From: Candidatus Krumholzibacteriia bacterium
GTDB lineage: Bacteria > Krumholzibacteriota > Krumholzibacteriia > Krumholzibacteriales > Krumholzibacteriaceae
DNA: 46,102 bases
Assembly (NCBI GenBank): GCA_025453655.1
Contig: JALOPX010000006.1
Coordinates: 1 to 46,102 of the forward strand
Direction of reading: 5' to 3'
Below the pieces are notes generated by a model, which ran no database searches, was not told the origin of the DNA, and was given only the letters and a program-made list of their open reading frames with translations. The position numbers and the translations under genes are program-made. Positions 24,816 to 37,379 of this stretch are shown here, piece by piece (the stretch's first letter is position 1; each line of letters begins with the position of its first letter).

Positions 24816-26915
24816 ATGGAAAAACAGGGTGAAAGACAGGAAGTCCTGGCCGAAAGCAGCCAGTTCGTGAAGGGCGTCGGGCCTTTCAGGCAGGTCCTGC
24901 TGAGCCGTCTCGGTATCGAGACGGTCGAGGACCTCGTGCTCCATTACCCGCGTAATTACTTCGATCGCAGCGAGTTGAAACGCGTCAGCGACATGGTCCC
25001 CGAAAGCCGGGGCTCCTTCTCGGGGACCGTGCTCGCCGTCTCTCCGCGAAAGCTCGGCCGGGGGCGTTCGATGCTTACCGTCGCCGTGGGGGACGAGACG
25101 GGGATCATCAATCTCGTCTTCTTCAACCAGCATTACCTCGAAAAGATTTTCAGGCAGGGAAACACCGTCATAGCGAGCGGAACGGTGAGACACTACAGGG
25201 GGCAGAAACAGATCGTTGCTCCCGAATACGAGATCGTCTCCGCGGACGCTGGGGACGAACTTCTCCATGCGGGAAGGATCGTTCCCGTCTATCCGCTGAC
25301 CGCCGGCATTTCGCAGAGAATGATGAGAAGGATCGTGAAAACGGCCCTCGACAAGTGCGGGGGGAGGATCCGGGAAAACCTCCCGGAGTGGATAACGGGC
25401 CCCTCCGGCTTCCCGCGCAGGGAGGAGGCCCTCAGGCAGATCCATTATCCGGAAAGCTGGGAAAATCTTAAGGCCGCGGTCGACCGGATGAAATTCGAGG
25501 AGGTTTTTTTCCTGCATCTTCTCGTCATGATGAGAAGGAAATTCCTCGGCGAAGGGAGGCCCAGGCCGGAGATAAGGCCGCCGCACCCCCTTCTCGAGAG
25601 GTTTCTCGCTTCGCTGCCCTTCGAGATGACGCTCGCGCAGAAAAGGGCGCTCTCCGAGATCGCCGCCGACGTGGAGGGCCCGAGGGGGCTCTCCCGGCTG
25701 CTGCAGGGGGACGTCGGCTGCGGGAAAACCGTCGTCGGGATAGCCGCGATGCTGATGGCGGTCGGCAGGGGGTTCCAGGCCGCGCTCATGGTCCCGACGG
25801 AGATACTGGCCGAGCAGCATTTCGGCAAGATCAGGGAGTATCTGAAGGGCTTCCCCGTCGCGTCCGAGCTGTTGATAGGATCGCTCGGCCAGGCGGAGAA
25901 GAAGAGGATCCACGCCGGCATAGCCTCGGGGGAGATCGACCTGGTCGTCGGCACCCAGGCCCTGATCCAGGAAGGAATAGATTTCAGGCAGCTCGGGCTC
26001 GCTGTGATAGACGAACAGCACAGGTTCGGTGTCCGCCAGAGGGCGAGGCTCGGACAGGGCGGGCTGCTTCCCCATTTTCTCGTCATGACGGCGACGCCCA
26101 TCCCGAGATCCCTCGCCCAGACCGTTTACGGGGATCTGGACCTGACGGTGATAGACGAGCTCCCGTTCGGAGGGAGAAAGGTGCGCACCGGCCTGATCGG
26201 CGAAAGCCGGCTCGATGAGGTTTACGCCGCCATCAGGAATGCGTTCGACGCCGGGAGGCAGGCGTTCATTCTTTATCCCCTGGTCGAGGAAAGCGAAAAG
26301 TCGGACCTGAGGGCGGCGGTCGACGAGTTCGAAAGGCTTCAGAGGGACGAATTCGCCGGGTATCCCCTCGGGCTTCTTCACGGCAGGATGAGTTTCGAGG
26401 AGAAATCGCGCGCGATAGAGATGTTCCGCGACCGGAGCATAATGGGGCTCGTGACCACCACAGTGATCGAGGTCGGCGTGGACATACCGAACGCGTCGAT
26501 CCTCCTGATAAACCATCCCGAAAGGTTCGGGCTGTCCCAGCTTCACCAGCTCAGGGGCAGGGTCGGGAGGGGCGGAGAGGAGGGGATCTGTTTCCTGGCG
26601 ACCGGAGCCGGGGACGAGAGCGACAGCGCGAGGCGCCTTGAATTTTTCGCGTCCACCGACGACGGATTCGCGGTGGCCGAGATGGATCTGAAACTCAGGG
26701 GGCCGGGGGAGATATGGGGGCTGAGACAGTCGGGATATCCGATGTTCAGGCTGCTCAATCCGCTCAGCGACCGGATGATCGTCGAAAGGTCCTGGGAGAC
26801 GGCGCGCGATCTTCTCGCGGCGGATCCGGGTCTTAAAAGGGCCGAAAACAGGGTTGTAGCGGAATATTTTCAACTGTATTACAGGCCGAGGATGGAACTC
26901 GGGGATATCGGCTGA
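24816..26915 (+). CDS. recG: ATP-dependent DNA helicase RecG
   Basis: KGVGP, OB-fold wedge, [55 protein letters not shown]. Confidence 0.98.
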
Positions 26916-27532: not shown

Positions 27533-28123
27533 ATGATCGTCACCTGTGACGGATGCCAGACAAGGTACATGCTTGGAAACGACAAGGTTCCCCCGCGGGG
27601 AATCCGTGTCAGATGTCCGAAGTGCCGTTTCGTGTGGAAGCTCACCGCCGCCGCCGAGAAACCCGTCTTCGAGGTCAGCTCGGGCAGGTTCTCATCGGAA
27701 GCCGCGGCCGCCGAAGCTCCCGCAGGAGGCTGGAACGCTTCCCCGCAGAGATCGACGGTCGTCATGACCGAGCCGGAGATAAGCGCGCCCGGGATCGGGC
27801 CGGAAAAGGAAGTCGAGATCCGGTCCGGCGACCGGAGCGCCGCGCCTTCCCTGACGGAGGCTCAGGAATCGCCGGAGCTCAAGAGAAAACGCGAAAGGAC
27901 CAGAAGGCTCGCCAGGGTCTTCGTCAGCGACATCCTCGTGTACAACAAGGAAAAAAGGAATCAGGCGCTTGGGGAGGGGAACCTGATGGCCGCGCTGGGC
28001 CCGGAGATAAAGAAGGCCTGGGAGGCTTACAAGGAGAAGGTCGGTACGGAGTTGAAGGAATCGAACGATTATTTCCGTGAAGCCCTGAACGATATCCTAG
28101 CCGATGGGCAGGAAGTTTTCTGA
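27533..28123 (+). CDS. MJ0042-type zinc-ribbon protein with C-terminal RomX-like helical domain
   Basis: MIVTCDGCQTRY...VRCPKCRFVW zinc ribbon, low-complexity linker, then RRLARVFVSDILVYN...EIKKAWEAYKEKV...YFREALNDIL; the RomX likeness is from recalled sequence pattern. Confidence 0.75.
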   Translation: MIVTCDGCQTRYMLGNDKVPPRGIRVRCPKCRFVWKLTAAAEKPVFEVSSGRFSSEAAAAEAPAGGWNASPQRSTVVMTEPEISAPGIGPEKEVEIRSGDRSAAPSLTEAQESPELKRKRERTRRLARVFVSDILVYNKEKRNQALGEGNLMAALGPEIKKAWEAYKEKVGTELKESNDYFREALNDILADGQEVF

Positions 28124-28131
28124 AAACGCGT

Positions 28132-28956
28132 GTGAATAAGCTGTCCTTATATATTCTCGACCTGGCGCCGGCGGTGCATGCCGAGTTTTTCAGCGATATG
28201 CGGCTGCCCGAAGAGGTCGACGTAAAGGTTTACAAGACCTATCCCCGGTTTCTCGGCGGTCTGCAGGCTCCCGAGGCCGGCGATCCCAACATTCTGCTCT
28301 TCCTTCCTTCGGGGCGGTTCGACGCCTCAAAGGCGCGCCAGCTCCGGATCCTCAAGATAGATTCGCCGATGTACATAATCACCCCCGAATGCGACGAGAA
28401 AGCCTATCTTTCATACCTGTCGATGGGCGTGAGCGGGATATTGACCCCTCCGTTCAACAAGGTGGACGTTCAGGGCGTGATGAACGGCCGCGATCAGCAT
28501 GGAATACTCTTCCCGAGGAACAATGAGCTGATCAGGGAGGGCCAGGTACGCCTCGATTTCCTGGTTCCGAGCAAGCTATCGAGGATACTCGGGGTCAACC
28601 GCCTGGTCTCCTTCCTCGCGGCGGAGTTCGGATTCCCGCCGGAGGACACCCGGGTCAACCTTCCGATGGTGATGGACGAGGCTCTCAGCAACGCAATGGA
28701 GCACGGAAACGGGGGGAACGAGAACCTGAAGGTTCACGTGAGGATATACGTGAGCACCAGCAGGATCGTCATGCAGATCGAGGACCAGGGTGAGGGGTTC
28801 ATACCCGAGCACATCGATGATCCGACCGACAGGGAGAATCTCTACAAGGGGTCCGGCAGGGGCATATTCCTGATGAAGGAGCTGATGGACAAGGTCACAT
28901 TCAGCAAGGGCGGGCGGCTCGTGGAGATAGAGAAGATCAACCCGCTCGCCACGTGA
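28132..28956 (+). CDS. Pseudo-receiver domain fused to RsbW/SpoIIAB-like (HATPase_c_2) Ser/Thr kinase
   Basis: DEALSNAMEHGN (N box), IEDQGEGF (G1), SGRGIFLMKELMD (G2); N-terminal REC-like ...GVSGILTPPF lacking the conserved Asp and Lys. Confidence 0.82.
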   Translation: MNKLSLYILDLAPAVHAEFFSDMRLPEEVDVKVYKTYPRFLGGLQAPEAGDPNILLFLPSGRFDASKARQLRILKIDSPMYIITPECDEKAYLSYLSMGVSGILTPPFNKVDVQGVMNGRDQHGILFPRNNELIREGQVRLDFLVPSKLSRILGVNRLVSFLAAEFGFPPEDTRVNLPMVMDEALSNAMEHGNGGNENLKVHVRIYVSTSRIVMQIEDQGEGFIPEHIDDPTDRENLYKGSGRGIFLMKELMDKVTFSKGGRLVEIEKINPLAT

Positions 28957-28969
28957 AAGCGGCTTCCCG

Positions 28970-29410
28970 CTATTTCTCCCCCCACTTTTCCTTCGATATC
29001 TTCTCGAGGAGATTGTCTATCTGACCGCGGATCCTCTCGTTCTGATCGGGCTCGAAAAGCACCTTCTTGACCCTGCCCTGATCGTCCTTCTTCACGTATC
29101 TGATGGCCTTGATATTCTCCATCGGGATCAGGATGTCCTTGCTGACGCGCACCTCTATGTTCCGCTCGTCGAGGTTCTTGTCGTTGTTGTTATACGGGTG
29201 CATGCCCATTCCCCATCCGTGCACGAACATGCTGCAGATGATCGCCCTGAAGGTGTTCTGCCTCTGGACCGTGTCGAGTTCGAAGGTGTCCTGGAACTTC
29301 TCCATCATCCCGTCGATGACGATCTGGAGTTTCTTGAGGGTCTCCTGCTTCGGTTCCGTGTTGAGGAGCCTGTGGAAGACCTCTTTGAGGATCTTTTCAG
29401 TGATTTCCAT
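28970..29410 (-). CDS. Hypothetical protein (146 aa), convergent with kinase gene
   Basis: Host-like GC3-rich codon usage on minus strand, globular composition (MEITEKILKEVF...); no family recognised. Confidence 0.7.
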   Translation of the reverse strand: MEITEKILKEVFHRLLNTEPKQETLKKLQIVIDGMMEKFQDTFELDTVQRQNTFRAIICSMFVHGWGMGMHPYNNNDKNLDERNIEVRVSKDILIPMENIKAIRYVKKDDQGRVKKVLFEPDQNERIRGQIDNLLEKISKEKWGEK

Positions 29411-29635
29411 ATTCCGCTCTCGCCCCCGCGCTGTTAAATCGAACGAAAGTATCGCCGCAAACGCAACATGCCGTCTGGATGGAAATAGCAAAAAGAGGAC
29501 CAAAGGCGCGCCTTCCCCGGTCTTTTCCATCGAAGCCTCGCGGGGTGTGGGTGAAATCTCCGGGGGCCGGCCCCCGGGCGCAAAGGCCTCCGTCCCGTCA
29601 TCCGCCGGGACGGAGGCCCGGTTGGAGGCGGGAAA

Positions 29636-29651
29636 TGGCACGGTTCTGGCA
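29636..29651 (+). promoter_or_regulatory. Putative sigma-54 (-24/-12) promoter
   Basis: TGGCACG-GTTC-TGGCA with exact GG-N10-GC spacing; one mismatch to TTGC in the -12 box. Confidence 0.55.
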
Positions 29652-29688
29652 CGAAGGGATGAAATGGTCCGTAAGGGAAGGAGCGGAG

Positions 29689-30105
29689 TTGCACGTTAAC
29701 ACAGAAGTCACCGTTTTCATGCAAAAAGCGATATATTACGTCAGCAGGCTCATGGCCGCGAGAGGCGTGGTCGAAATGACCGACAGGAGCCTGAACTTCG
29801 AGGTTTCGAGCCTCGATTCCGCCTTCGGCATAAGGGACGTGTCAATCGACCTTTCCACCCTCCTGGAAGTGAGGATAGAGTGCGGCGATCTTAACCCGAG
29901 GATCATCGTCACGGCCGCCTGCGGAAAATACGAGTTCGTCCTTTCCCGCGGGCAGGAGCTCTACGACAGGCTCCGCGAGCATATTCACAACCCGTCGTTT
30001 GCACTCGACGCCGGCGCGGGAGCCGCGGTCACCCTGAAGTGCGGATGCGGCAGCGAGATAAACAGCCTCTACCGTTTCTGCCCGTGGTGCGGCTCCAGGA
30101 TGTGA
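29689..30105 (+). CDS. Hypothetical protein, PH/GRAM-like beta domain plus C-terminal zinc ribbon
   Basis: GVVEMTDRSLNF...VSIDLSTLLEV...YEF...LYDRL resembles a bacterial PH fold; CGCG...FCPWCG zinc ribbon; TTG start with GGAAGGAG SD (alternatives 29659, 29719). Confidence 0.65.
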   Translation: MHVNTEVTVFMQKAIYYVSRLMAARGVVEMTDRSLNFEVSSLDSAFGIRDVSIDLSTLLEVRIECGDLNPRIIVTAACGKYEFVLSRGQELYDRLREHIHNPSFALDAGAGAAVTLKCGCGSEINSLYRFCPWCGSRM

Positions 30106-30224
30106 CGGGCAAGGGCCGGGTTCATTTTTCAGTTGTCCTCCCTCCCCATATTTATTACATTGATTCCGGGTTATGATTCCGGCCGGCAAGGCCGTATGCG
30201 CGTATACCTTTTGAGGAGGTCCAT

Positions 30225-30575
30225 ATGAGACGGGCCATGTTGATGATGATATCAGCCGTATTGATGCTGTCGTTCTTCTCGTCGGGATGCAAGGACGATT
30301 CTCAGGAAGCCTCCGAGACCGGTCTCAGGATCGTCACGGATGGATGCATCGAATTCGGCATTTATATCCATATAGATGACGAGCCTCAGGGCATGATCTC
30401 TTCGCTCGAGCCGGCCAACATCCTTCTTCCCGCGGGAACATACGAGCTTTTCGCGCGCAGCAACGCGGCATGGAACGGCAACGAGCTCTGCTGGACGGGA
30501 CAGTACACGGTCAGCGACGGTTCGCTGACGACGGTCACGCTTACCTGCAGCGAAGAGCAGTTCTGCGGAGATTGA
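30225..30575 (+). CDS. Putative lipoprotein with PEGA/Ig-like beta domain
   Basis: SD GAGGAGG, signal peptide with lipobox FSSGC, IYIHIDDEPQG...LPAGTYELFA. Confidence 0.75.
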   Translation: MRRAMLMMISAVLMLSFFSSGCKDDSQEASETGLRIVTDGCIEFGIYIHIDDEPQGMISSLEPANILLPAGTYELFARSNAAWNGNELCWTGQYTVSDGSLTTVTLTCSEEQFCGD

Positions 30576-30633
30576 TCCTCGGAGCGCCCCGTCCGGGGCG
30601 CGGCAGATCCGGAACGGGACGAATCGCAGTTTA

Positions 30634-30670
30634 AGAAGGCCCTTTCTCATTATGAGCGAAGGGCCTTTTC
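30634..30670 (+). terminator. Intrinsic terminator after lipoprotein gene
   Basis: AAGGCCCTT...AAGGGCCTT stem extended by CTCA/TGAG, followed by short T run. Confidence 0.6.
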
Positions 30671-30740
30671 ACGTCTATCCCCGCATATTGTAACATCAAG
30701 CCGGACAAGGAATTAAAAAAATAGAGCCTCCCGGCCCGCA

Positions 30741-30755
30741 TGGCACATTACTTGC
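30741..30755 (+). promoter_or_regulatory. Sigma-54 (-24/-12) promoter upstream of mglA-like gene
   Basis: TGGCACATTACTTGC matches TGGCAC-N5-TTGC exactly; intergenic, behind an AT-rich tract. Confidence 0.75.
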
Positions 30756-30769
30756 GGAAACCGCAAATT

Positions 30770-30894
30770 GGTCGGGGTGGATTCTACAGATACCGACGTA
30801 GACAGTGAACACCCTAGCTCAAGTGACGCGACCTGCTCCGGATTCTGCTTCCTTGCCTGTGCACCGAGTGAGCGGGATGTAGGCCGCCCCGACT
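30770..30894 (+). ncRNA. Candidate structured 5' leader or sRNA (no family recognised)
   Basis: GTCGGGGTGG 30771-30780 pairs with CCGCCCCGAC 30884-30893, and TCTACA 30783-30788 with TGTAGG 30878-30883; begins about 4 nt after the predicted sigma-54 start site. Confidence 0.4.
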
Positions 30895-30919
30895 TCAAAC
30901 TCTAAGGAGATAACAGGAG

Positions 30920-32071
30920 ATGGCTGTTTACAATTACGCCGGCGGAGAGGTCAACATCAAGATAGTTTACTACGGCCCGGGTCTGAGCGGGAAGACCACG
31001 AATCTCGAGCACATGTATTCGAAGCTCCCGAGGGAGAACAAGGGCAAGATGGTCTCCATGAAGACTAGGACGGACAGGACGCTCTTTTTCGATTTTCTCC
31101 CGATAGAGGTCGACGGGCTCAACGGGATGACCGCGCGTTTTCTCCTTTACACCGTTCCCGGACAGGTCTATTACAACGCCACGCGAAAACTGGTTCTGAA
31201 GGGGGCCGACGCCGTGGTTTTCGTGGCCGATTCGGATCCCGAGAGGATGGACGACAACAGGGAAAGCCTCTCCAACCTCGAGGAGAACCTCAACGAGCTG
31301 GGATTGTCGCTCTCCGATATTCCGTGGGTCATCCAGTACAACAAGCGCGATCTTCCGGACCGCATGGAAATCGGGGCCCTCGACGCGGCTCTCAACAAAT
31401 GGAACGCGACCTCCTACGAGGCCGTCGCCACGACGGGGCAGGGTGTTTACGAGACCTTCGAAGGAATAGCCCGCAAGGTTTTCAGATCTCTCAACGAAGC
31501 CATGAAGAATCCGGCGGCGGCGCCGCAGAATGAAGATAAACCCGCCTCAGTGGAGGTCAGGCCCGAGGTCGTGGCGAAGGGGAAAAAGGGAGTTTATGAC
31601 TCAGAGACGGACAAGAGCGAATCTTTGTGTTACGCAGAGGAGAGAGAAGAGGAGCACGAATCTGTCTCTGAGTTGATTGAAAACGTACTCAGCGACGGGG
31701 AGAAGAAGGAAAGCATAGACATGAACTCCACCAGGGAAGGGTATGAGGATTACGGGCACATGGTGGAGCTTGGAAACGGAGCGGCTTCCCCCGATGCGGG
31801 AAAAGCCGCCGCTGACGAATCCCCGGCCGGCGACCCGGCGGGATTGGATATCATAAACGATCCGCTGGAAAAGCTCTGCGAATGCCCGGGCGGGGACGCC
31901 GGCGGGGAATCGACGGCCGCCGGGCCTCGCAAGGAAGAGGCTGCAGCCGGCGCCGTCGCCTGCATGGTCGCCGAAAAGACGCTCACGGTCGCGCTCGAGC
32001 TGTCCGAGGAGGAGATCCGGGGCAACGTCCCGGTCAGGATCATCCTCGATATAAAAGTCGCCTCGTCCTGA
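30920..32071 (+). CDS. mglA: MglA-family small Ras-like GTPase with long acidic C-terminal extension
   Basis: NIKIVYYGPGLSGKTTNL (G1), RTLFFDFLP (G2 with intrinsic Arg), LYTVPGQVYY (G3), QYNKRDLP (G4), EAVA (G5); about 185 extra residues follow. Confidence 0.9.
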   Translation: MAVYNYAGGEVNIKIVYYGPGLSGKTTNLEHMYSKLPRENKGKMVSMKTRTDRTLFFDFLPIEVDGLNGMTARFLLYTVPGQVYYNATRKLVLKGADAVVFVADSDPERMDDNRESLSNLEENLNELGLSLSDIPWVIQYNKRDLPDRMEIGALDAALNKWNATSYEAVATTGQGVYETFEGIARKVFRSLNEAMKNPAAAPQNEDKPASVEVRPEVVAKGKKGVYDSETDKSESLCYAEEREEEHESVSELIENVLSDGEKKESIDMNSTREGYEDYGHMVELGNGAASPDAGKAAADESPAGDPAGLDIINDPLEKLCECPGGDAGGESTAAGPRKEEAAAGAVACMVAEKTLTVALELSEEEIRGNVPVRIILDIKVASS

Positions 32072-32167
32072 TCCGCCTTAAAAAGTGCTTGACCGGCGGC
32101 TCCAATCATCCCAAGATATAAGCATGTATCGGCACGCGGCCCGCATTATCGTCGCAGGGGGCGAAAG

Positions 32168-32536
32168 ATGGCAAGGATCCTTATCGTCGATGACGAAGTG
32201 AACGTCAGGAACCTGTACAGCGAAGAACTCGAAGGCGAAGGGTACGAGACGATCCTCGCCGAGAACATCGCAGAAGCCCTCGCGGCCGTCGGGAAAGGCG
32301 CGCCGGATCTGATAGTTCTCGACATCAAGCTCGGCGACGAGAGCGGCATCGACGCCCTCATGCAGATCGCCGACAGGCACAAGAACATCCCGGTCATCCT
32401 CAATTCCGCCTATTCGGTCTACAAGGACAATTTCCAGACATGGGCCGCCGACGCCTATATAGTGAAATCGGCGGATCTCAAGCCTCTGAAGGACAAGATA
32501 AAGGAACTGCTCGAGAGAAAGGAGATGCCGCAGTGA
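32168..32536 (+). CDS. Single-domain response regulator (CheY-like receiver)
   Basis: ILIVDDE, PDLIVLDIKL (phospho-Asp), ILNSAY, YIVKS. Confidence 0.93.
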   Translation: MARILIVDDEVNVRNLYSEELEGEGYETILAENIAEALAAVGKGAPDLIVLDIKLGDESGIDALMQIADRHKNIPVILNSAYSVYKDNFQTWAADAYIVKSADLKPLKDKIKELLERKEMPQ

Positions 32537-32976
32537 CGAGGGCAGCGATAGCGGCTCTGGCGATCGCCCTGATGATGCTCGCGCAGCCGGCGCGGACCGC
32601 CGCGGGCGAAGAGCATGTTTCCGGCGGCGGCATCTTCGACGACTATCTCAACCCCGTTGAAAATCCCTCCTTCGCCGGCCTTGCCGGCATTTCGTTCAGC
32701 AGCTCGGCGGGATTCCTGTACTCGTCCGGCGGGACGCGCGGCTCTGACGGATCGGCATTCTACATGGGGCATTTCAGCTGCGATCTCGCATCCAACCTGA
32801 CGCTCCGGTGGGATGTGGGGCTGCGTTCGTCGATGGTCGGTCCCGAAGCGGGAGGCGATCCGGAATTTTTCATCCCCAACATCGATCTCACTTACAGGCC
32901 GAGCGACAGGCTGATGTTCACGCTGCGGTTCGGCCGGTACGATATGGGCACGCAGTCTTACCTTATGCGCCGCTGA
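32533..32976 (+). CDS. Hypothetical exported beta-rich protein
   Basis: GTGA overlap with receiver gene; N-terminal signal peptide; amphipathic beta strands (IDLTYRPSDRLMFTLRFG). Confidence 0.65.
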   Translation: MTRAAIAALAIALMMLAQPARTAAGEEHVSGGGIFDDYLNPVENPSFAGLAGISFSSSAGFLYSSGGTRGSDGSAFYMGHFSCDLASNLTLRWDVGLRSSMVGPEAGGDPEFFIPNIDLTYRPSDRLMFTLRFGRYDMGTQSYLMRR

Positions 32977-33007
32977 CGCCGCTGCTGCTCTCCGGACCAT
33001 AATATCC

Positions 33008-33037
33008 TTGACATAAAGGCCGTTGCCGGGCTAGCCT
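33008..33037 (+). promoter_or_regulatory. Putative sigma-70 promoter of TPR-wzi-ubiA-uppP unit
   Basis: TTGACA-18 bp-TAGCCT in the intergenic gap. Confidence 0.55.
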
Positions 33038-33082
33038 CAATCGTACCCGAACACCTGTGGATTTCTTCGAGGGGGGTCCGAG

Positions 33083-34240
33083 ATGGGGTTGAGCTGGGAC
33101 AAGCTGCTTGAATTTACAAAGGGCGAGGTCAAGGAGGAGGGCAGGGAAATCGCGCGGCTGAAACGGCGGTGCGACTCCGGAGAGGCCCGTACGGATGAGA
33201 TGCTCGAGCTGGCGAAGCATCTGCTCAGGAGAAAAGAAGCGGGAAAATCAGAGAAGCTGATGAGGGAACTGCTCGCCAGGGCGGATGTCACCGAGGACAC
33301 GCTGACGGAGATATGCTCGCTCTTCGAGGATACCGGCAATTACGAGGCGGCCTTCGAGGGGTACCAGCGCTACAGGGAGATGGTGAGCTGCAACGCCTTT
33401 CCCATATACAGGATGGGAAGGCTGCTCGAGCTCCAGGGCAGGCTCGACGAGGCCATTCTTCTTCACAGGGAGGCGGTGGCGGTCGATCCGGAAAACCCCG
33501 AATGCTATTACCGGCTGGGCGTGGCATGCACGAAGAGCCGGCGTTTCAGCGAGGCCGAGGAAAATTACCGCAAAGCCATAGAGATAGATCCCACGCACTC
33601 GAAATCTTATACGAATCTCGGATACATACTCGACCTGAACGGGAAGAGAAGCGCGGCGCTTCAACAGTTCAGGAAGGCGGTTCAGCACAATCCGAGAAGC
33701 GCCGAGGCGCATTTCAATCTGGGCGCGCTGTACGGCGAGGAGGGCGACAAGGATCTCGCGATAAAGGAATTCCGCATCGGGCTGGAATTGGATCCCTCCT
33801 GCGTCGAAGGCCACTACAACCTCGGCATCGCCCTCATCAACGAGGGGCATCTCGACGAAGCGCTCGAGGAGTTCAGCAGGATACTGAGGCTCGAGAGCGA
33901 TAACGTGAACGCGCTTTTCTACAAGGGGCTCATCTATTACAGGAAAGGCCTTTACGCGCGGGCGATCAAGCACCTTCAGCAGGCGGTCCATCTCAATCCC
34001 GGCAACTCGACCATACTTTATTATGTCGGCGAATGTTTCAACAAGCTGGAACAGCCCGACAAGGCCAAGGAATATTTCAAACGCGTGGCCGAAATCAATC
34101 CGGACGATCAGAGGGTATATTTCAGCATGGGGATCGCATGCGAAAAACAGGACGACAAAAGCACGGCCCGCGAATGGTACAGGATGGCCGCGGCCGGGGC
34201 TCCGACCGTACTCAGGGAGACGCACCGCATATCCGGATGA
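33083..34240 (+). CDS. Tetratricopeptide-repeat protein
   Basis: About 8-9 tandem TPRs (DPENPECYYRLG, DPTHSKSYTNLG, NPRSAEAHFNLG, DPSCVEGHYNLG). Confidence 0.92.
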   Translation: MGLSWDKLLEFTKGEVKEEGREIARLKRRCDSGEARTDEMLELAKHLLRRKEAGKSEKLMRELLARADVTEDTLTEICSLFEDTGNYEAAFEGYQRYREMVSCNAFPIYRMGRLLELQGRLDEAILLHREAVAVDPENPECYYRLGVACTKSRRFSEAEENYRKAIEIDPTHSKSYTNLGYILDLNGKRSAALQQFRKAVQHNPRSAEAHFNLGALYGEEGDKDLAIKEFRIGLELDPSCVEGHYNLGIALINEGHLDEALEEFSRILRLESDNVNALFYKGLIYYRKGLYARAIKHLQQAVHLNPGNSTILYYVGECFNKLEQPDKAKEYFKRVAEINPDDQRVYFSMGIACEKQDDKSTAREWYRMAAAGAPTVLRETHRISG

Positions 34241-35784
34241 AATCCGCAATACTTTCAAGACGCCTTGCTTTCGCCGCGGTACTGCCGCTTCTTCTGCTTC
34301 CCTCGGGGATTCTCGCTTCCAACGAGACCATCGACGTAGACAGCTGGATCTATCCGGCCTTCCGGACCCTCGAGCTGGCGGGCATGGTCGATCTGCCGCC
34401 CCGCATGCCATGGACAAGAAGCGAGGCGGAGTTTTTTCTCGACCGGGCGCTTCAATCGCTCGGAGACGGCGGGGCGGCTCCCACCGCGCGGCAGGGCTTC
34501 CTTCTGGAACGGCTGAAGGGCGAATTCCACGGGAAGGCTTCCCGGCCCGCGGACCGCGAGGACGGCCCCCTCTGGTGCATGAGGGAGGGGGCGCGGTTCG
34601 CCGCCTTCGATCTGTCGGCGGGCGCGTCGTACGGCAAAAACGCTCCGGCAGGACGGGAAGGGCCGTCGGGCTCGGCGGTCCCGGAGTTACTCGCCGATCT
34701 GGGCAGGGGGCTGACCCTCTTTTCATCCTACAGCGCGAGGCTCGAGCGCGAGTCCGGCTCCAACGTGTCGGGTGAAAAGCCGTCGCCGAGGGAAAAAAGC
34801 TTCAGGGGCCTGAGGTCGGAGTACCGCCGCGGGTACATTTCGGTCACGGGTAACAGGTGGGCGCTTCTCGCGGGGAGGGACCACATCCACTGGGGGCCGG
34901 GCCGCGATGAGGGGCTCATCATGTCCAGGACCGCGGGATCGATCGACCAGATCTCGGCGATGGTGGAGATGGGCCGGTTCAGGCTCAGCGCGGTGCAGGC
35001 CGTGCTCGACCCGGAGATCCCGAGGCGCCTCGCGGGGCATCGCCTCGAGATTTCGCTGCCGCGGAAAATCAGGCTCGGCATAAGCGAAACGGTGGTATAC
35101 ACGGGAAGAGGCCTTGATTTCTCGTACCTCATCCCGGCCGGATCCTTCTACGCCAACCAGTACAACGAGAGGGACGACGACAACATCCTCTGGGGCCTCG
35201 ACCTGAAGGTGCCTCTTCGCGCGGGGATGATCGCCCACGGCGAGCTCCTCGTCGACGATTTCCAGTACGAGGGCAGGGGGACCGCCCCGGACAGGCTGGC
35301 ATTCAACATCTCGATCGAGGCGCTCGCCGCCCCGTTCGGACGCGACGTCGAGATAACGGCCGGATATACGTATGTCGATATCTTCACATACGCGCACAAG
35401 GATTCGCTGCTCGCACGGTACGTGACCGGCGACGGCGATCCCCTGGTCAATCCGATCATCGGTTCCCCCCTCGGTCCCGATTCCGACAGATGGAATCTCG
35501 GCGCCTCGGTGGCGATAACCGCCCGTTTCACGGCGGAGGCCGGCGTGACGCTGACGAGGCGGGGCGACGGCAACGATCTCCGCGAATGGGAAAGGGGATC
35601 CGATCCGGACCCCTCGTTTCCGAGCGGAACGACCCTGGACGAAAGGATATTCCTCCTCGGAGGATCGTTCGATCTCGGAAAGGGGTCTTCGGTCTTCGGG
35701 AGCGCCGGCCTGGCGCGCTTCACGGGCCCGGACAGGGACGGGGATGGAAGTTTCGCGTATCTCGGAATGGTACTGGATTTCTGA
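34237..35784 (+). CDS. Capsule assembly Wzi-family outer-membrane beta-barrel protein
   Basis: Signal peptide, GRDHIHWGPG...LIMS, LAGHRLEI, GISETVVY, C-terminal Phe. Confidence 0.78.
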   Translation: MKSAILSRRLAFAAVLPLLLLPSGILASNETIDVDSWIYPAFRTLELAGMVDLPPRMPWTRSEAEFFLDRALQSLGDGGAAPTARQGFLLERLKGEFHGKASRPADREDGPLWCMREGARFAAFDLSAGASYGKNAPAGREGPSGSAVPELLADLGRGLTLFSSYSARLERESGSNVSGEKPSPREKSFRGLRSEYRRGYISVTGNRWALLAGRDHIHWGPGRDEGLIMSRTAGSIDQISAMVEMGRFRLSAVQAVLDPEIPRRLAGHRLEISLPRKIRLGISETVVYTGRGLDFSYLIPAGSFYANQYNERDDDNILWGLDLKVPLRAGMIAHGELLVDDFQYEGRGTAPDRLAFNISIEALAAPFGRDVEITAGYTYVDIFTYAHKDSLLARYVTGDGDPLVNPIIGSPLGPDSDRWNLGASVAITARFTAEAGVTLTRRGDGNDLREWERGSDPDPSFPSGTTLDERIFLLGGSFDLGKGSSVFGSAGLARFTGPDRDGDGSFAYLGMVLDF

Positions 35785-36630: not shown

Positions 36631-37379
36631 TTGTTCTTCGACATCATCACGGCGATCATACTGGCCGTAGTCCAGGGGCTCACCGAATTTCTGCCGGTCA
36701 GCTCTTCGGGTCACCTCGCCATCGGCGCGGCGCTTCTCGGGTCGAAGGGCGCTTCGGGGGGAGGGAACCTGATTTTCGAGGTCGCCGTGCATGTGGGGAC
36801 GCTCGGCGCCGTTGCCGCGATATACAGGCGAAGGATCCGGGCTCTCTTCGAAAGCGCCCTGTCCTTCGCGTCCTCCGGTTTCAGGCCGGTCGGGAAACAC
36901 CGGGAAGGGATGTCATATATAGGCCTGATGGCGCTCGGATCGGTCCCGGCGGCGGTCGTGGGACTTTTGTTCCGCGACAGGATAGCCGCCCTTTTCGATT
37001 CGCCGGCCGTCGTCTCGATTCTCCTTGTCGGGACGGGCTTTTTCCTGCTGTCGTCCCGTGGGCGATCGGGGTCCTCCCCGATTACGCCCGGCAGGGCCCT
37101 CCTTATCGGGATGGCCCAGGCGGTGGCCATCCTGCCGGGCTGTTCGAGGAGCGGCTGGACGATAACGATGGCCCTGCTGGCGGGGATCGGCTTCGAAAAG
37201 GCCAGGCCTCGTCGGTCCTCCTTCTGCTCGTACCGGCGGCTGTCGCTTTTGCCACCGGGCTCGCGGCATTGAAACTGCTGGTGCGGATCCTCCGCGCGGG
37301 CGCTTTGCACAGGTTCGCGTGGTACCTTATCCCGGTCGGAGCCGTTTCCTGGGCATATTTCACCTTCATCGGCCGCTAG
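36631..37379 (+). pseudogene. uppP: Undecaprenyl-diphosphate phosphatase UppP/BacA disrupted by an internal out-of-frame deletion near 37203 (or assembly error)
   Basis: VQGLTEFLPVSSSGHL, HVGT and PGCSRSG in frame 1 up to GIGFEKA; the C-terminal AFATGLAALKLL...HRFAWYLIPVG is in another frame (37203-37379); the FSFLLSIPA-type helix is absent. Confidence 0.8.

Follow-up and report, generated by a model that had tools for sequence, protein, structure and literature searches.

To our knowledge, nearly everything that is known about the placement of MglA at the cell pole comes from Myxococcus. The small stand-alone protein RomX is the partner of RomR, which has a receiver and a Pro-rich region. 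In the accessible part of one preprint, exchange activity was reported for RomX alone; R11, R14 and D19 of helix 1 were needed for this activity, R11 and R14 were also needed for the binding of MglA-GTP, and L75/R76 of helix 3 and W87 contacted the RomR receiver (10.1101/2024.02.20.581209). In the available portion of another, RomRX was described as an effector of MglA-GTP, not as an exchange factor for guanine nucleotides (GEF) (10.1101/2024.10.31.621274). A zinc ribbon occurs in a second described protein, GltJ (AgmX, 7ZOK), where it precedes a linker that binds MglA-GTP and itself contacts the C-terminal helix of MglB; the ribbon resembles that of Caulobacter ZitP, which binds the polar organiser PopZ (PMC11135422, in the part of that article consulted). 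The stretch of DNA analyzed here (the window) comprises 46,102 nucleotides, i.e. positions 1-46,102 of the forward strand of contig JALOPX010000006.1 (assembly GCA_025453655.1), from an uncultured Krumholzibacteriota bacterium whose genome assembly amounts to 2.55 Mb and is 90% complete. The original prediction for this DNA was a polarity-signalling module built on MglA and a RomX-like protein, without MglB or RomR. Judged from its gene content, the locus appears to be a variant, with different wiring, of the cell-polarity system of Myxococcus. The reading preferred here, to which a probability of about 0.5 is assigned, is that MglA polarity in this bacterium is served by a distributed system whose second locus lies in the window and includes a RomX-type partner with a zinc ribbon in place of RomR. 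The literature on RomX and zinc, and on MglA in the phyla concerned, was searched; no description of this family or locus was found, and supplementary tables (Table S2 of PMC4316618 and Table S2 of the RomX preprint) may list members.

The RomX-type partner is encoded by the zinc-ribbon/RomX-like fusion gene (Table 1). The N-terminus of its product matched Zn_ribbon_4 (PF13717; 49 bits, cut-off 30.3) and TIGR02098 (44.5 bits, cut-off 20.9). The ribbon is of the MJ0042 type, with two CxxC pairs in which C5, C8, C28 and C31 are invariant among orthologues; GltJ and ZitP have the same CxxC...CxxC ribbon, and the GltJ zinc ribbon (7zok) was matched with E 3.2e-7. Residues 120-190 aligned with RomX (8zna_A) without gaps over 71 residues (E 1.8e-8), and a profile made from 11 orthologues improved the match to 8zna to E 5.8e-13. 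On these alignments, the C-terminus is judged to be a true RomX homologue. R125, R128 and D133 of the fusion protein align with R11, R14 and D19 of RomX, and all three were invariant in 29 of 29 orthologues. The alignment to 8zna stops at chain residue 76, opposite Ala190, and the fusion protein terminates at F196, closing with a conserved “ILADGxxxF-end” at about the equivalent of RomX residue 82. Because only some six residues follow the aligned part, an equivalent of W87 is impossible, and the end that contacts RomR is absent. Ala/Asp occupy the position of the basic RomR-contact residue; the printed 8zna numbering seems to be one off relative to the paper in this stretch, and the exact residue pairing is uncertain.

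Compared with RomX, the fusion protein thus shares the three-helix domain, the helix-1 residues and a gene near mglA; it differs in being joined via an acidic linker to an N-terminal ribbon, in having no W87 equivalent, and in that no RomR was found. Unlike GltJ, it is without a GYF domain, a membrane part or a Glt machinery context, and it would bind MglA by means of a folded domain instead of a linear motif. A complex prediction for the G domain of the window's MglA with the RomX-like domain, GTP and Mg gave 0.34 (control, 0.19), a difference below the required margin. The domain had originally been termed GEF-like, a label that is uncertain even for RomX, on which the two preprints cited above conflict; since it is disputed whether RomX is an exchange factor or an effector, the domain is called MglA-GTP-binding here.

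The MglA protein of the window is designated MglA2. Its residues 1-192 matched M. xanthus MglA with E 2.3e-67, and the P-loop, R53-T54, TVPGQ and NKRD were all intact; K25, T26, R53, T54, T78-Q82, N141, K142 and D144 were invariant in 23 MglA2 sequences. By the motifs defined in PMC4316618, MglA2 classifies as a group-1 MglA, and it shares the group-1 motifs (the Arg finger beside the G2 Thr, TVPGQ and NKRD) with the MglA proteins of the MglA/MglB systems of M. xanthus and Thermus thermophilus, with the orphan MglA of Bdellovibrio and with SofG. The acidic tail that follows the G domain had no Pfam match. In the window (31505-32068) and in orthologues, the tail keeps EVVA, SVSEFVD.VL, GYE.YGH and its final ~30 residues; from their conservation, these short motifs look like docking motifs.

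A second MglA (192 residues) is encoded elsewhere in the genome, in a recR-mglB-mglA operon on contig C26. The MglB of this operon scored 83 bits against the NCBIfam MglB model (under the cut-off of 200) and 46.6 bits against Pfam Roadblock (over the cut-off); it is the sole Roadblock match of the genome at E<=1, and none lies in the window. The predicted absence of MglB therefore stands for the window and fails for the genome. Against M. xanthus MglA, the canonical copy on C26 scored 294 bits and MglA2 231 bits. Because the shorter C26 protein is closer to M. xanthus MglA and has mglB beside it, MglA2 is regarded as a second, orphan paralogue: the C26 genes form a standard pair, whereas MglA2 has no adjacent MglB and carries the long tail. 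The search of the genome turned up a single RomX-like gene, which may therefore serve both MglA proteins. The absence of RomR, also predicted, was upheld in that the 29 receiver matches of the genome all lack a proline-rich tail; this search relied on receiver matches and tail composition only, without a RomR sequence or model. A genome search for type IV pilus genes had been suggested, and PilB, PilT and PilM were found; there was no flagellin match in the genome. The bacterium probably moves by type IVa pili.

Conservation of the locus was examined in related genomes. Forty-two genome loci share the gene order that runs from a radical S-adenosylmethionine (SAM) gene via recG to valS. The synteny proposed as a check was evident: in 31 of the 42, the MglA2 gene comes after the RomX-like gene and has the same orientation, and the remaining 11 end before that point. 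In 14 loci of other families, the common core consisted of recG, the fusion gene, an opposite-strand gene for a 146-residue protein, MglA2 and the gene for a tetratricopeptide-repeat (TPR) protein; the HATPase gene was present in seven of these loci and the receiver gene in four. The phylum was also surveyed using 81 sampled genomes, which are related to one another. The RomX-like domain was found in 79. Sixty-eight genomes have a long MglA (49) or a degenerate one (19, family f6), and in 65 of these the RomX-like gene lies on the same contig at a distance of 6.6 kb or less; of the three exceptions, two are highly fragmented assemblies. The pairing with an MglA gene holds across nine families, and the distance is only ~1-2 kb in families f5, f6 and f8.

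Two MglA-type genes were present in 63 genomes, 62 of which have MglB and 62 a strong PilM match (E<=1e-20). In five genomes, all of family f4, only the long MglA was present; no MglB was found, and PilM was present in all five. Eight genomes have only a distant MglA-like gene (<=40% identity) and five have no MglA-type gene, with none appearing on a recheck at E<=0.01; MglB was not found in either group, and neither has a strong PilM match. Strong PilM matches were thus obtained in 67 of 68 genomes with canonical-type MglA and in none of 13 without. MglB was always beside the short MglA (62 genomes); in the remaining genome of the 63, the short MglA is cut by a contig end. A divergence of the RomX-like domain that tracks the loss of MglA2 was considered and ruled out: in family f4, the E-values with and without MglA2 overlap. 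The helix-1 R..R motif persists in both MglA-less genomes whose RomX-like sequences were examined. In the MglA-less loci L055 and L056, helix 1 of the RomX-like domain has Glu instead of Asp. Three records labelled otherwise (L041, Latescibacterota; L045, Patescibacteria group; P0008, Bacteroidales) have either the complete gene order of Krumholzibacteriota or a close orthologue, and these labels are probably binning or naming errors.

The features of the locus are collected in Table 1. All six open reading frames (ORFs) of the original prediction were found in their places, and the matches above and in the table bore out the zinc ribbon, the RomX-like C-terminus, the MglA GTPase with its intact G motifs, the single-domain receiver, the TPR protein and the flanking recG and wzi genes. 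Three further genes, not listed in that prediction, were recognized: those of the 146-residue protein, the lipoprotein-like ORF and the exported protein.

Table 1. Genes and ORFs of the locus, with coordinates given as positions in the window.
Feature	Position	Strand	Basis or remark
recG	24816-26915		RecG model 837.8 bits, cut-off 718
HD-domain gene	between recG and the zinc-ribbon/RomX-like gene		
Zinc ribbon, acidic linker and RomX-like three-helix domain, 196 residues	27533-28123	+	Zn_ribbon_4, TIGR02098, RomX 8zna
Pseudo-receiver with RsbW/SpoIIAB-type HATPase_c_2, 274 residues	28132-28956	+	Pfam match and fold model
146-residue protein without family or fold match	28970-29410	-	conservation across loci
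Small protein with C-terminal zinc ribbon and possibly a pleckstrin-homology (PH)-like N-terminus	~29659-30105	+	start inferred from orthologues
Lipoprotein-like ORF (signal peptide, then Cys), 116 residues, without family	30225-30575	+	
MglA2, 383 residues: group-1 MglA G domain and 190-residue acidic tail	30920-32071	+	
Stand-alone receiver, phosphorylation residues intact	32168-32536	+	Response_reg 73 bits
Exported protein, ~147 residues, without family	~32533-32976	+	GTG start overlaps receiver stop (GTGA)
Cytoplasmic TPR protein, 385 residues	33083-34240	+	seven TPR_1 stretches
Wzi-family outer-membrane protein	34237-35784	+	Wzi 41.6 bits, cut-off 30.1

Two same-strand gene runs are separated by the opposite-strand gene of the 146-residue protein, and the locus is therefore not one operon. 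The HATPase gene starts 8 nt past the stop of the fusion gene, and a gap of 344 nt lies between the lipoprotein-like ORF and the MglA2 gene. Translational coupling is indicated by GTGA (32533-32536) from the receiver gene to the exported ORF and by ATGA (34237-34240) from the TPR gene to the Wzi-like gene; both couplings tie cytoplasmic signalling genes to envelope proteins. A scan of the locus for promoters and terminators gave counts close to those in shuffled sequence.

The protein encoded at 28132 had been described as a pseudo-receiver/RsbW-like kinase. Its ATPase part scored 71 bits against HATPase_c_2 (cut-off 27.4) and matched RsbW (6m36) with E 9e-6; the NCBIfam RsbW and SpoIIAB equivalogs were far under their cut-offs (for RsbW, 37 bits vs. 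145). Its N-terminal 130 residues were modelled with a predicted local distance difference test (pLDDT) score of 86.8 in a (beta-alpha)x5 topology. Foldseek returned 102 matches to this model at E<=0.001, and the top rows read were all receiver domains (PorX, KdpE, FixJ, CheY); a sequence profile of the same region gave weak receiver matches, the best with E 0.022. The positions of the acceptor Asp and of the Lys are Leu/Pro and Thr/Pro, respectively, and are not conserved. With a receiver fold that lacks these residues, the domain is classed as a pseudo-receiver. The earlier description thus stands for the pseudo-receiver. The protein shares HATPase_c_2 with the RsbW/SpoIIAB anti-sigma serine kinases and differs from them in its fusion to a degenerate receiver. 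In the MglA-less loci L055 and L056, the HATPase gene has no pseudo-receiver half (195 and 164 residues).

The 146-residue protein is the product of the best-conserved gene of the cluster, with 70-100% identity in L004-L045; the gene is present in all 14 loci from other families and belongs to the cluster core. Family-model scans (Pfam, NCBIfam) gave no match. The structural model had a pLDDT of 71 (53-64 in the C-terminal half), and Foldseek found no match to it at E<=0.001. In a wide structure search, the best Z was 6.9, with sigma-factor region-2 helical bundles at Z 5-7, which is within noise for helical models; an Atlas search gave no usable match. The ORF at 29659, which occurs in only part of the phylum, has a C-terminal CxC...CxxC, and its zinc-ribbon Pfam matches were all under the cut-off (E 0.001-0.04). 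The designation “PH-like” derives from Atlas leads only (bPH_3 clusters at 0.88-0.89), and no Pfam match reached its cut-off. The receiver of the window carries DD, D52, S80 and K99 and is closest to Thermotoga TM0468 (3a0r, E 1e-26); among its matches there was no RomR entry at E<=1e-8. For the TPR protein, only generic TPR matches were obtained, and the best NCBIfam model, MamA (161 bits), was under its cut-off of 200.

The observations comprise homologies, residue conservation, linkage of the genes and a phyletic pattern in common with PilM; from them, we infer the binding steps and the output of the distributed system as follows. The C26 locus would provide an ordinary mglB-mglA pair, i.e. 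the switch and its GTPase-activating protein. The window locus would contribute MglA2, the zinc-ribbon/RomX-like adaptor, the pseudo-receiver/HATPase, the 146-residue protein, the receiver and the TPR protein. Like RomX, the RomX-like domain would bind MglA-GTP, in this case through helix 1; its target may be MglA2, the canonical MglA or each of them. With no RomR, the zinc ribbon may give the second contact, either with the C-terminal helix of MglB in the manner of GltJ or with a polar landmark in the manner of ZitP, so that a single fusion chain would do the job of the RomR-RomX pair. The TPR protein is a candidate effector. A wider proposal is that the fusion protein is a single-chain replacement of RomR-RomX that serves two MglA paralogues and that, with the 146-residue protein, it forms an ancestral polarity core common to Krumholzibacteriota, Gemmatimonadota and related phyla, which MglA joined or left on several occasions; this is put forward as an unlikely extension.

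Several observations weigh against the distributed system. Across the phylum, synteny extends all the way from the radical-SAM gene to valS, and proximity alone is therefore weak evidence. The genomes are related, with at least two independent losses, so the co-occurrence does not amount to a statistical test. The RomX-like, 146-residue and TPR genes are retained in four genomes (96-100% complete) in which no MglA was found even at E<=0.01. The MglA that occupies the conserved position in family f6 (L050-L052) has 26-31% identity, has lost switch I and, in two of three, the P-loop Thr (GKR/GKRD P-loops); by these changes it looks like a natural pseudo-GTPase. The RomX-like domain beside it is nevertheless well conserved: it was detected with E<=1e-30 in the 19 f6 genomes with mglB-mglA and is weaker (seven genomes, E 1e-11 to 1e-21) or missing (two without a match) only in the nine that are also without mglB-mglA. 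MglA2 therefore need not be the partner of the RomX-like domain. Finally, outside the phylum, none of 43 Gemmatimonadota-type metagenome loci (of at least 4 kb) has a gene for MglA, MglB, the 146-residue protein, the HATPase or the TPR protein near the fusion gene. The linkage to MglA is therefore a feature of Krumholzibacteriota and not of the whole family.

That family is large. The RomX-like profile matched 2,633 representative clusters at E<=0.001, 805 of them at E<=1e-10, and one large subfamily (1,420 proteins) is from Gemmatimonadota wherever a source is named. The tethering of the domain to a zinc ribbon is not peculiar to this genome but is the commonest architecture among the nearest relatives of the domain (91 of the 135 best clusters scanned, Gemmatimonadota included), and the gene survives in the four genomes without MglA mentioned above. 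The accessible part of the RomX preprint likewise associates RomX-fold matches in the AlphaFold database with a zinc-finger domain (10.1101/2024.02.20.581209). A receiver is present in 10 of the same 135 clusters, some of which have three to five RomX-like stretches. Six proteins of 764-987 residues (P0121, P0122, P0123, P0132, P0138 and P0180) have a receiver-like N-terminus along with RomX-like stretches, three to five of them in tandem; by their domain arrangement, these are taken to be a multivalent form of the domain. In the Gemmatimonadota-type loci (L061-L138), a 326-residue GGDEF protein is encoded directly upstream of the fusion gene, and prfB and lysS lie downstream, in 22 of 22 loci compared; lolCD-like genes are also among the conserved downstream neighbours.

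These data bear on the main rival explanation, under which the RomX-like domain serves receiver-type domains in general as an adaptor and is not necessarily tied to MglA. The cluster would then be a set of conserved neighbours, and the partner of the domain would be the pseudo-receiver/HATPase or the 146-residue protein. The persistence of the fusion, 146-residue and TPR genes in the genomes without MglA is in keeping with such a role, as are the receivers in related clusters and the Gemmatimonadota-type loci, where MglA is not nearby and the GGDEF protein directly upstream has an unassigned N-terminal domain. In addition, helix 3 of RomX binds a receiver, and tandem arrangements of RomX-fold domains with receivers exist, according to the part of the preprint at hand (10.1101/2024.02.20.581209). 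What speaks against a receiver adaptor is the fusion protein itself: the residues that contact the RomR receiver are not kept, with Ala/Asp where a basic residue is needed, and the helix-1 residues for MglA binding are invariant. Across nine families, the fusion gene is closely paired with an MglA gene, which is also at odds with such a role, and this explanation is considered rather unlikely, though the strongest of the alternatives.

An autonomous module is the next alternative: it would work without MglB or RomR, and the tethered RomX-like domain would be the exchange factor for the MglA of the window alone. Some relatives in family f4 come close to this arrangement. In five of nine f4 genomes, the long MglA beside the RomX-like gene is the sole one; no MglB was found in any of the five, and there was no Roadblock family match in the three tested. 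This Roadblock-less state was seen only in some relatives of that family. The genome that contains the window has mglB-mglA on C26, and its single RomX-like gene may serve both MglA proteins. Exchange activity of RomX alone, as reported in the accessible text of 10.1101/2024.02.20.581209, would favour the module, but GEF activity of RomRX is disputed in that of 10.1101/2024.10.31.621274, and the RomX-like domain is conserved in f6 beside a degenerate MglA2. Such a module is accordingly held to be quite improbable. Least probable, and set aside as very doubtful, is that MglA2 is an orphan paralogue resembling SofG (a characterised orphan group-1 MglA, according to the part of PMC4316618 consulted) with a task of its own (e.g. 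placing pilus ATPases or an envelope or polysaccharide machine) that is unrelated to the RomX-like gene and has its output defined by its operon mates (the receiver, the exported protein, the TPR protein and the Wzi-like protein), since loss of MglA2 leaves the TPR and Wzi-like genes in place, even though the conserved long tail and the two couplings described above would fit.

Two observations concern the surroundings of the locus. In 20 of 31 related loci (L009, L012, L013 and 17 others; e.g. L013:11900-15200), a minus-strand block of 3.8 kb lies between the gene of the 146-residue protein and the next gene; it encodes a major facilitator superfamily transporter, a glycosyltransferase and a lysophospholipid acyltransferase-like protein, and it is absent from the window. 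Beyond the Wzi-like gene, an undecaprenyl-diphosphatase (BacA/UppP) ORF (36631-37272) matches its Pfam model of 257 positions only from 1 to 184, which may reflect a frameshift or an assembly error close to the 3' part of the gene.

With a RomX-like domain on a zinc ribbon, no RomR, two MglA paralogues, and relatives without MglB or MglA, the distributed system would be a natural variant that offers an independent test of the role of the RomX-type domain. Gemmatimonadota has cultured members, and because the large family reaches this phylum, the question can be taken to the bench. The co-occurrence of canonical MglA and PilM in the phylum supports a pilus-linked role of MglA outside Myxococcota.

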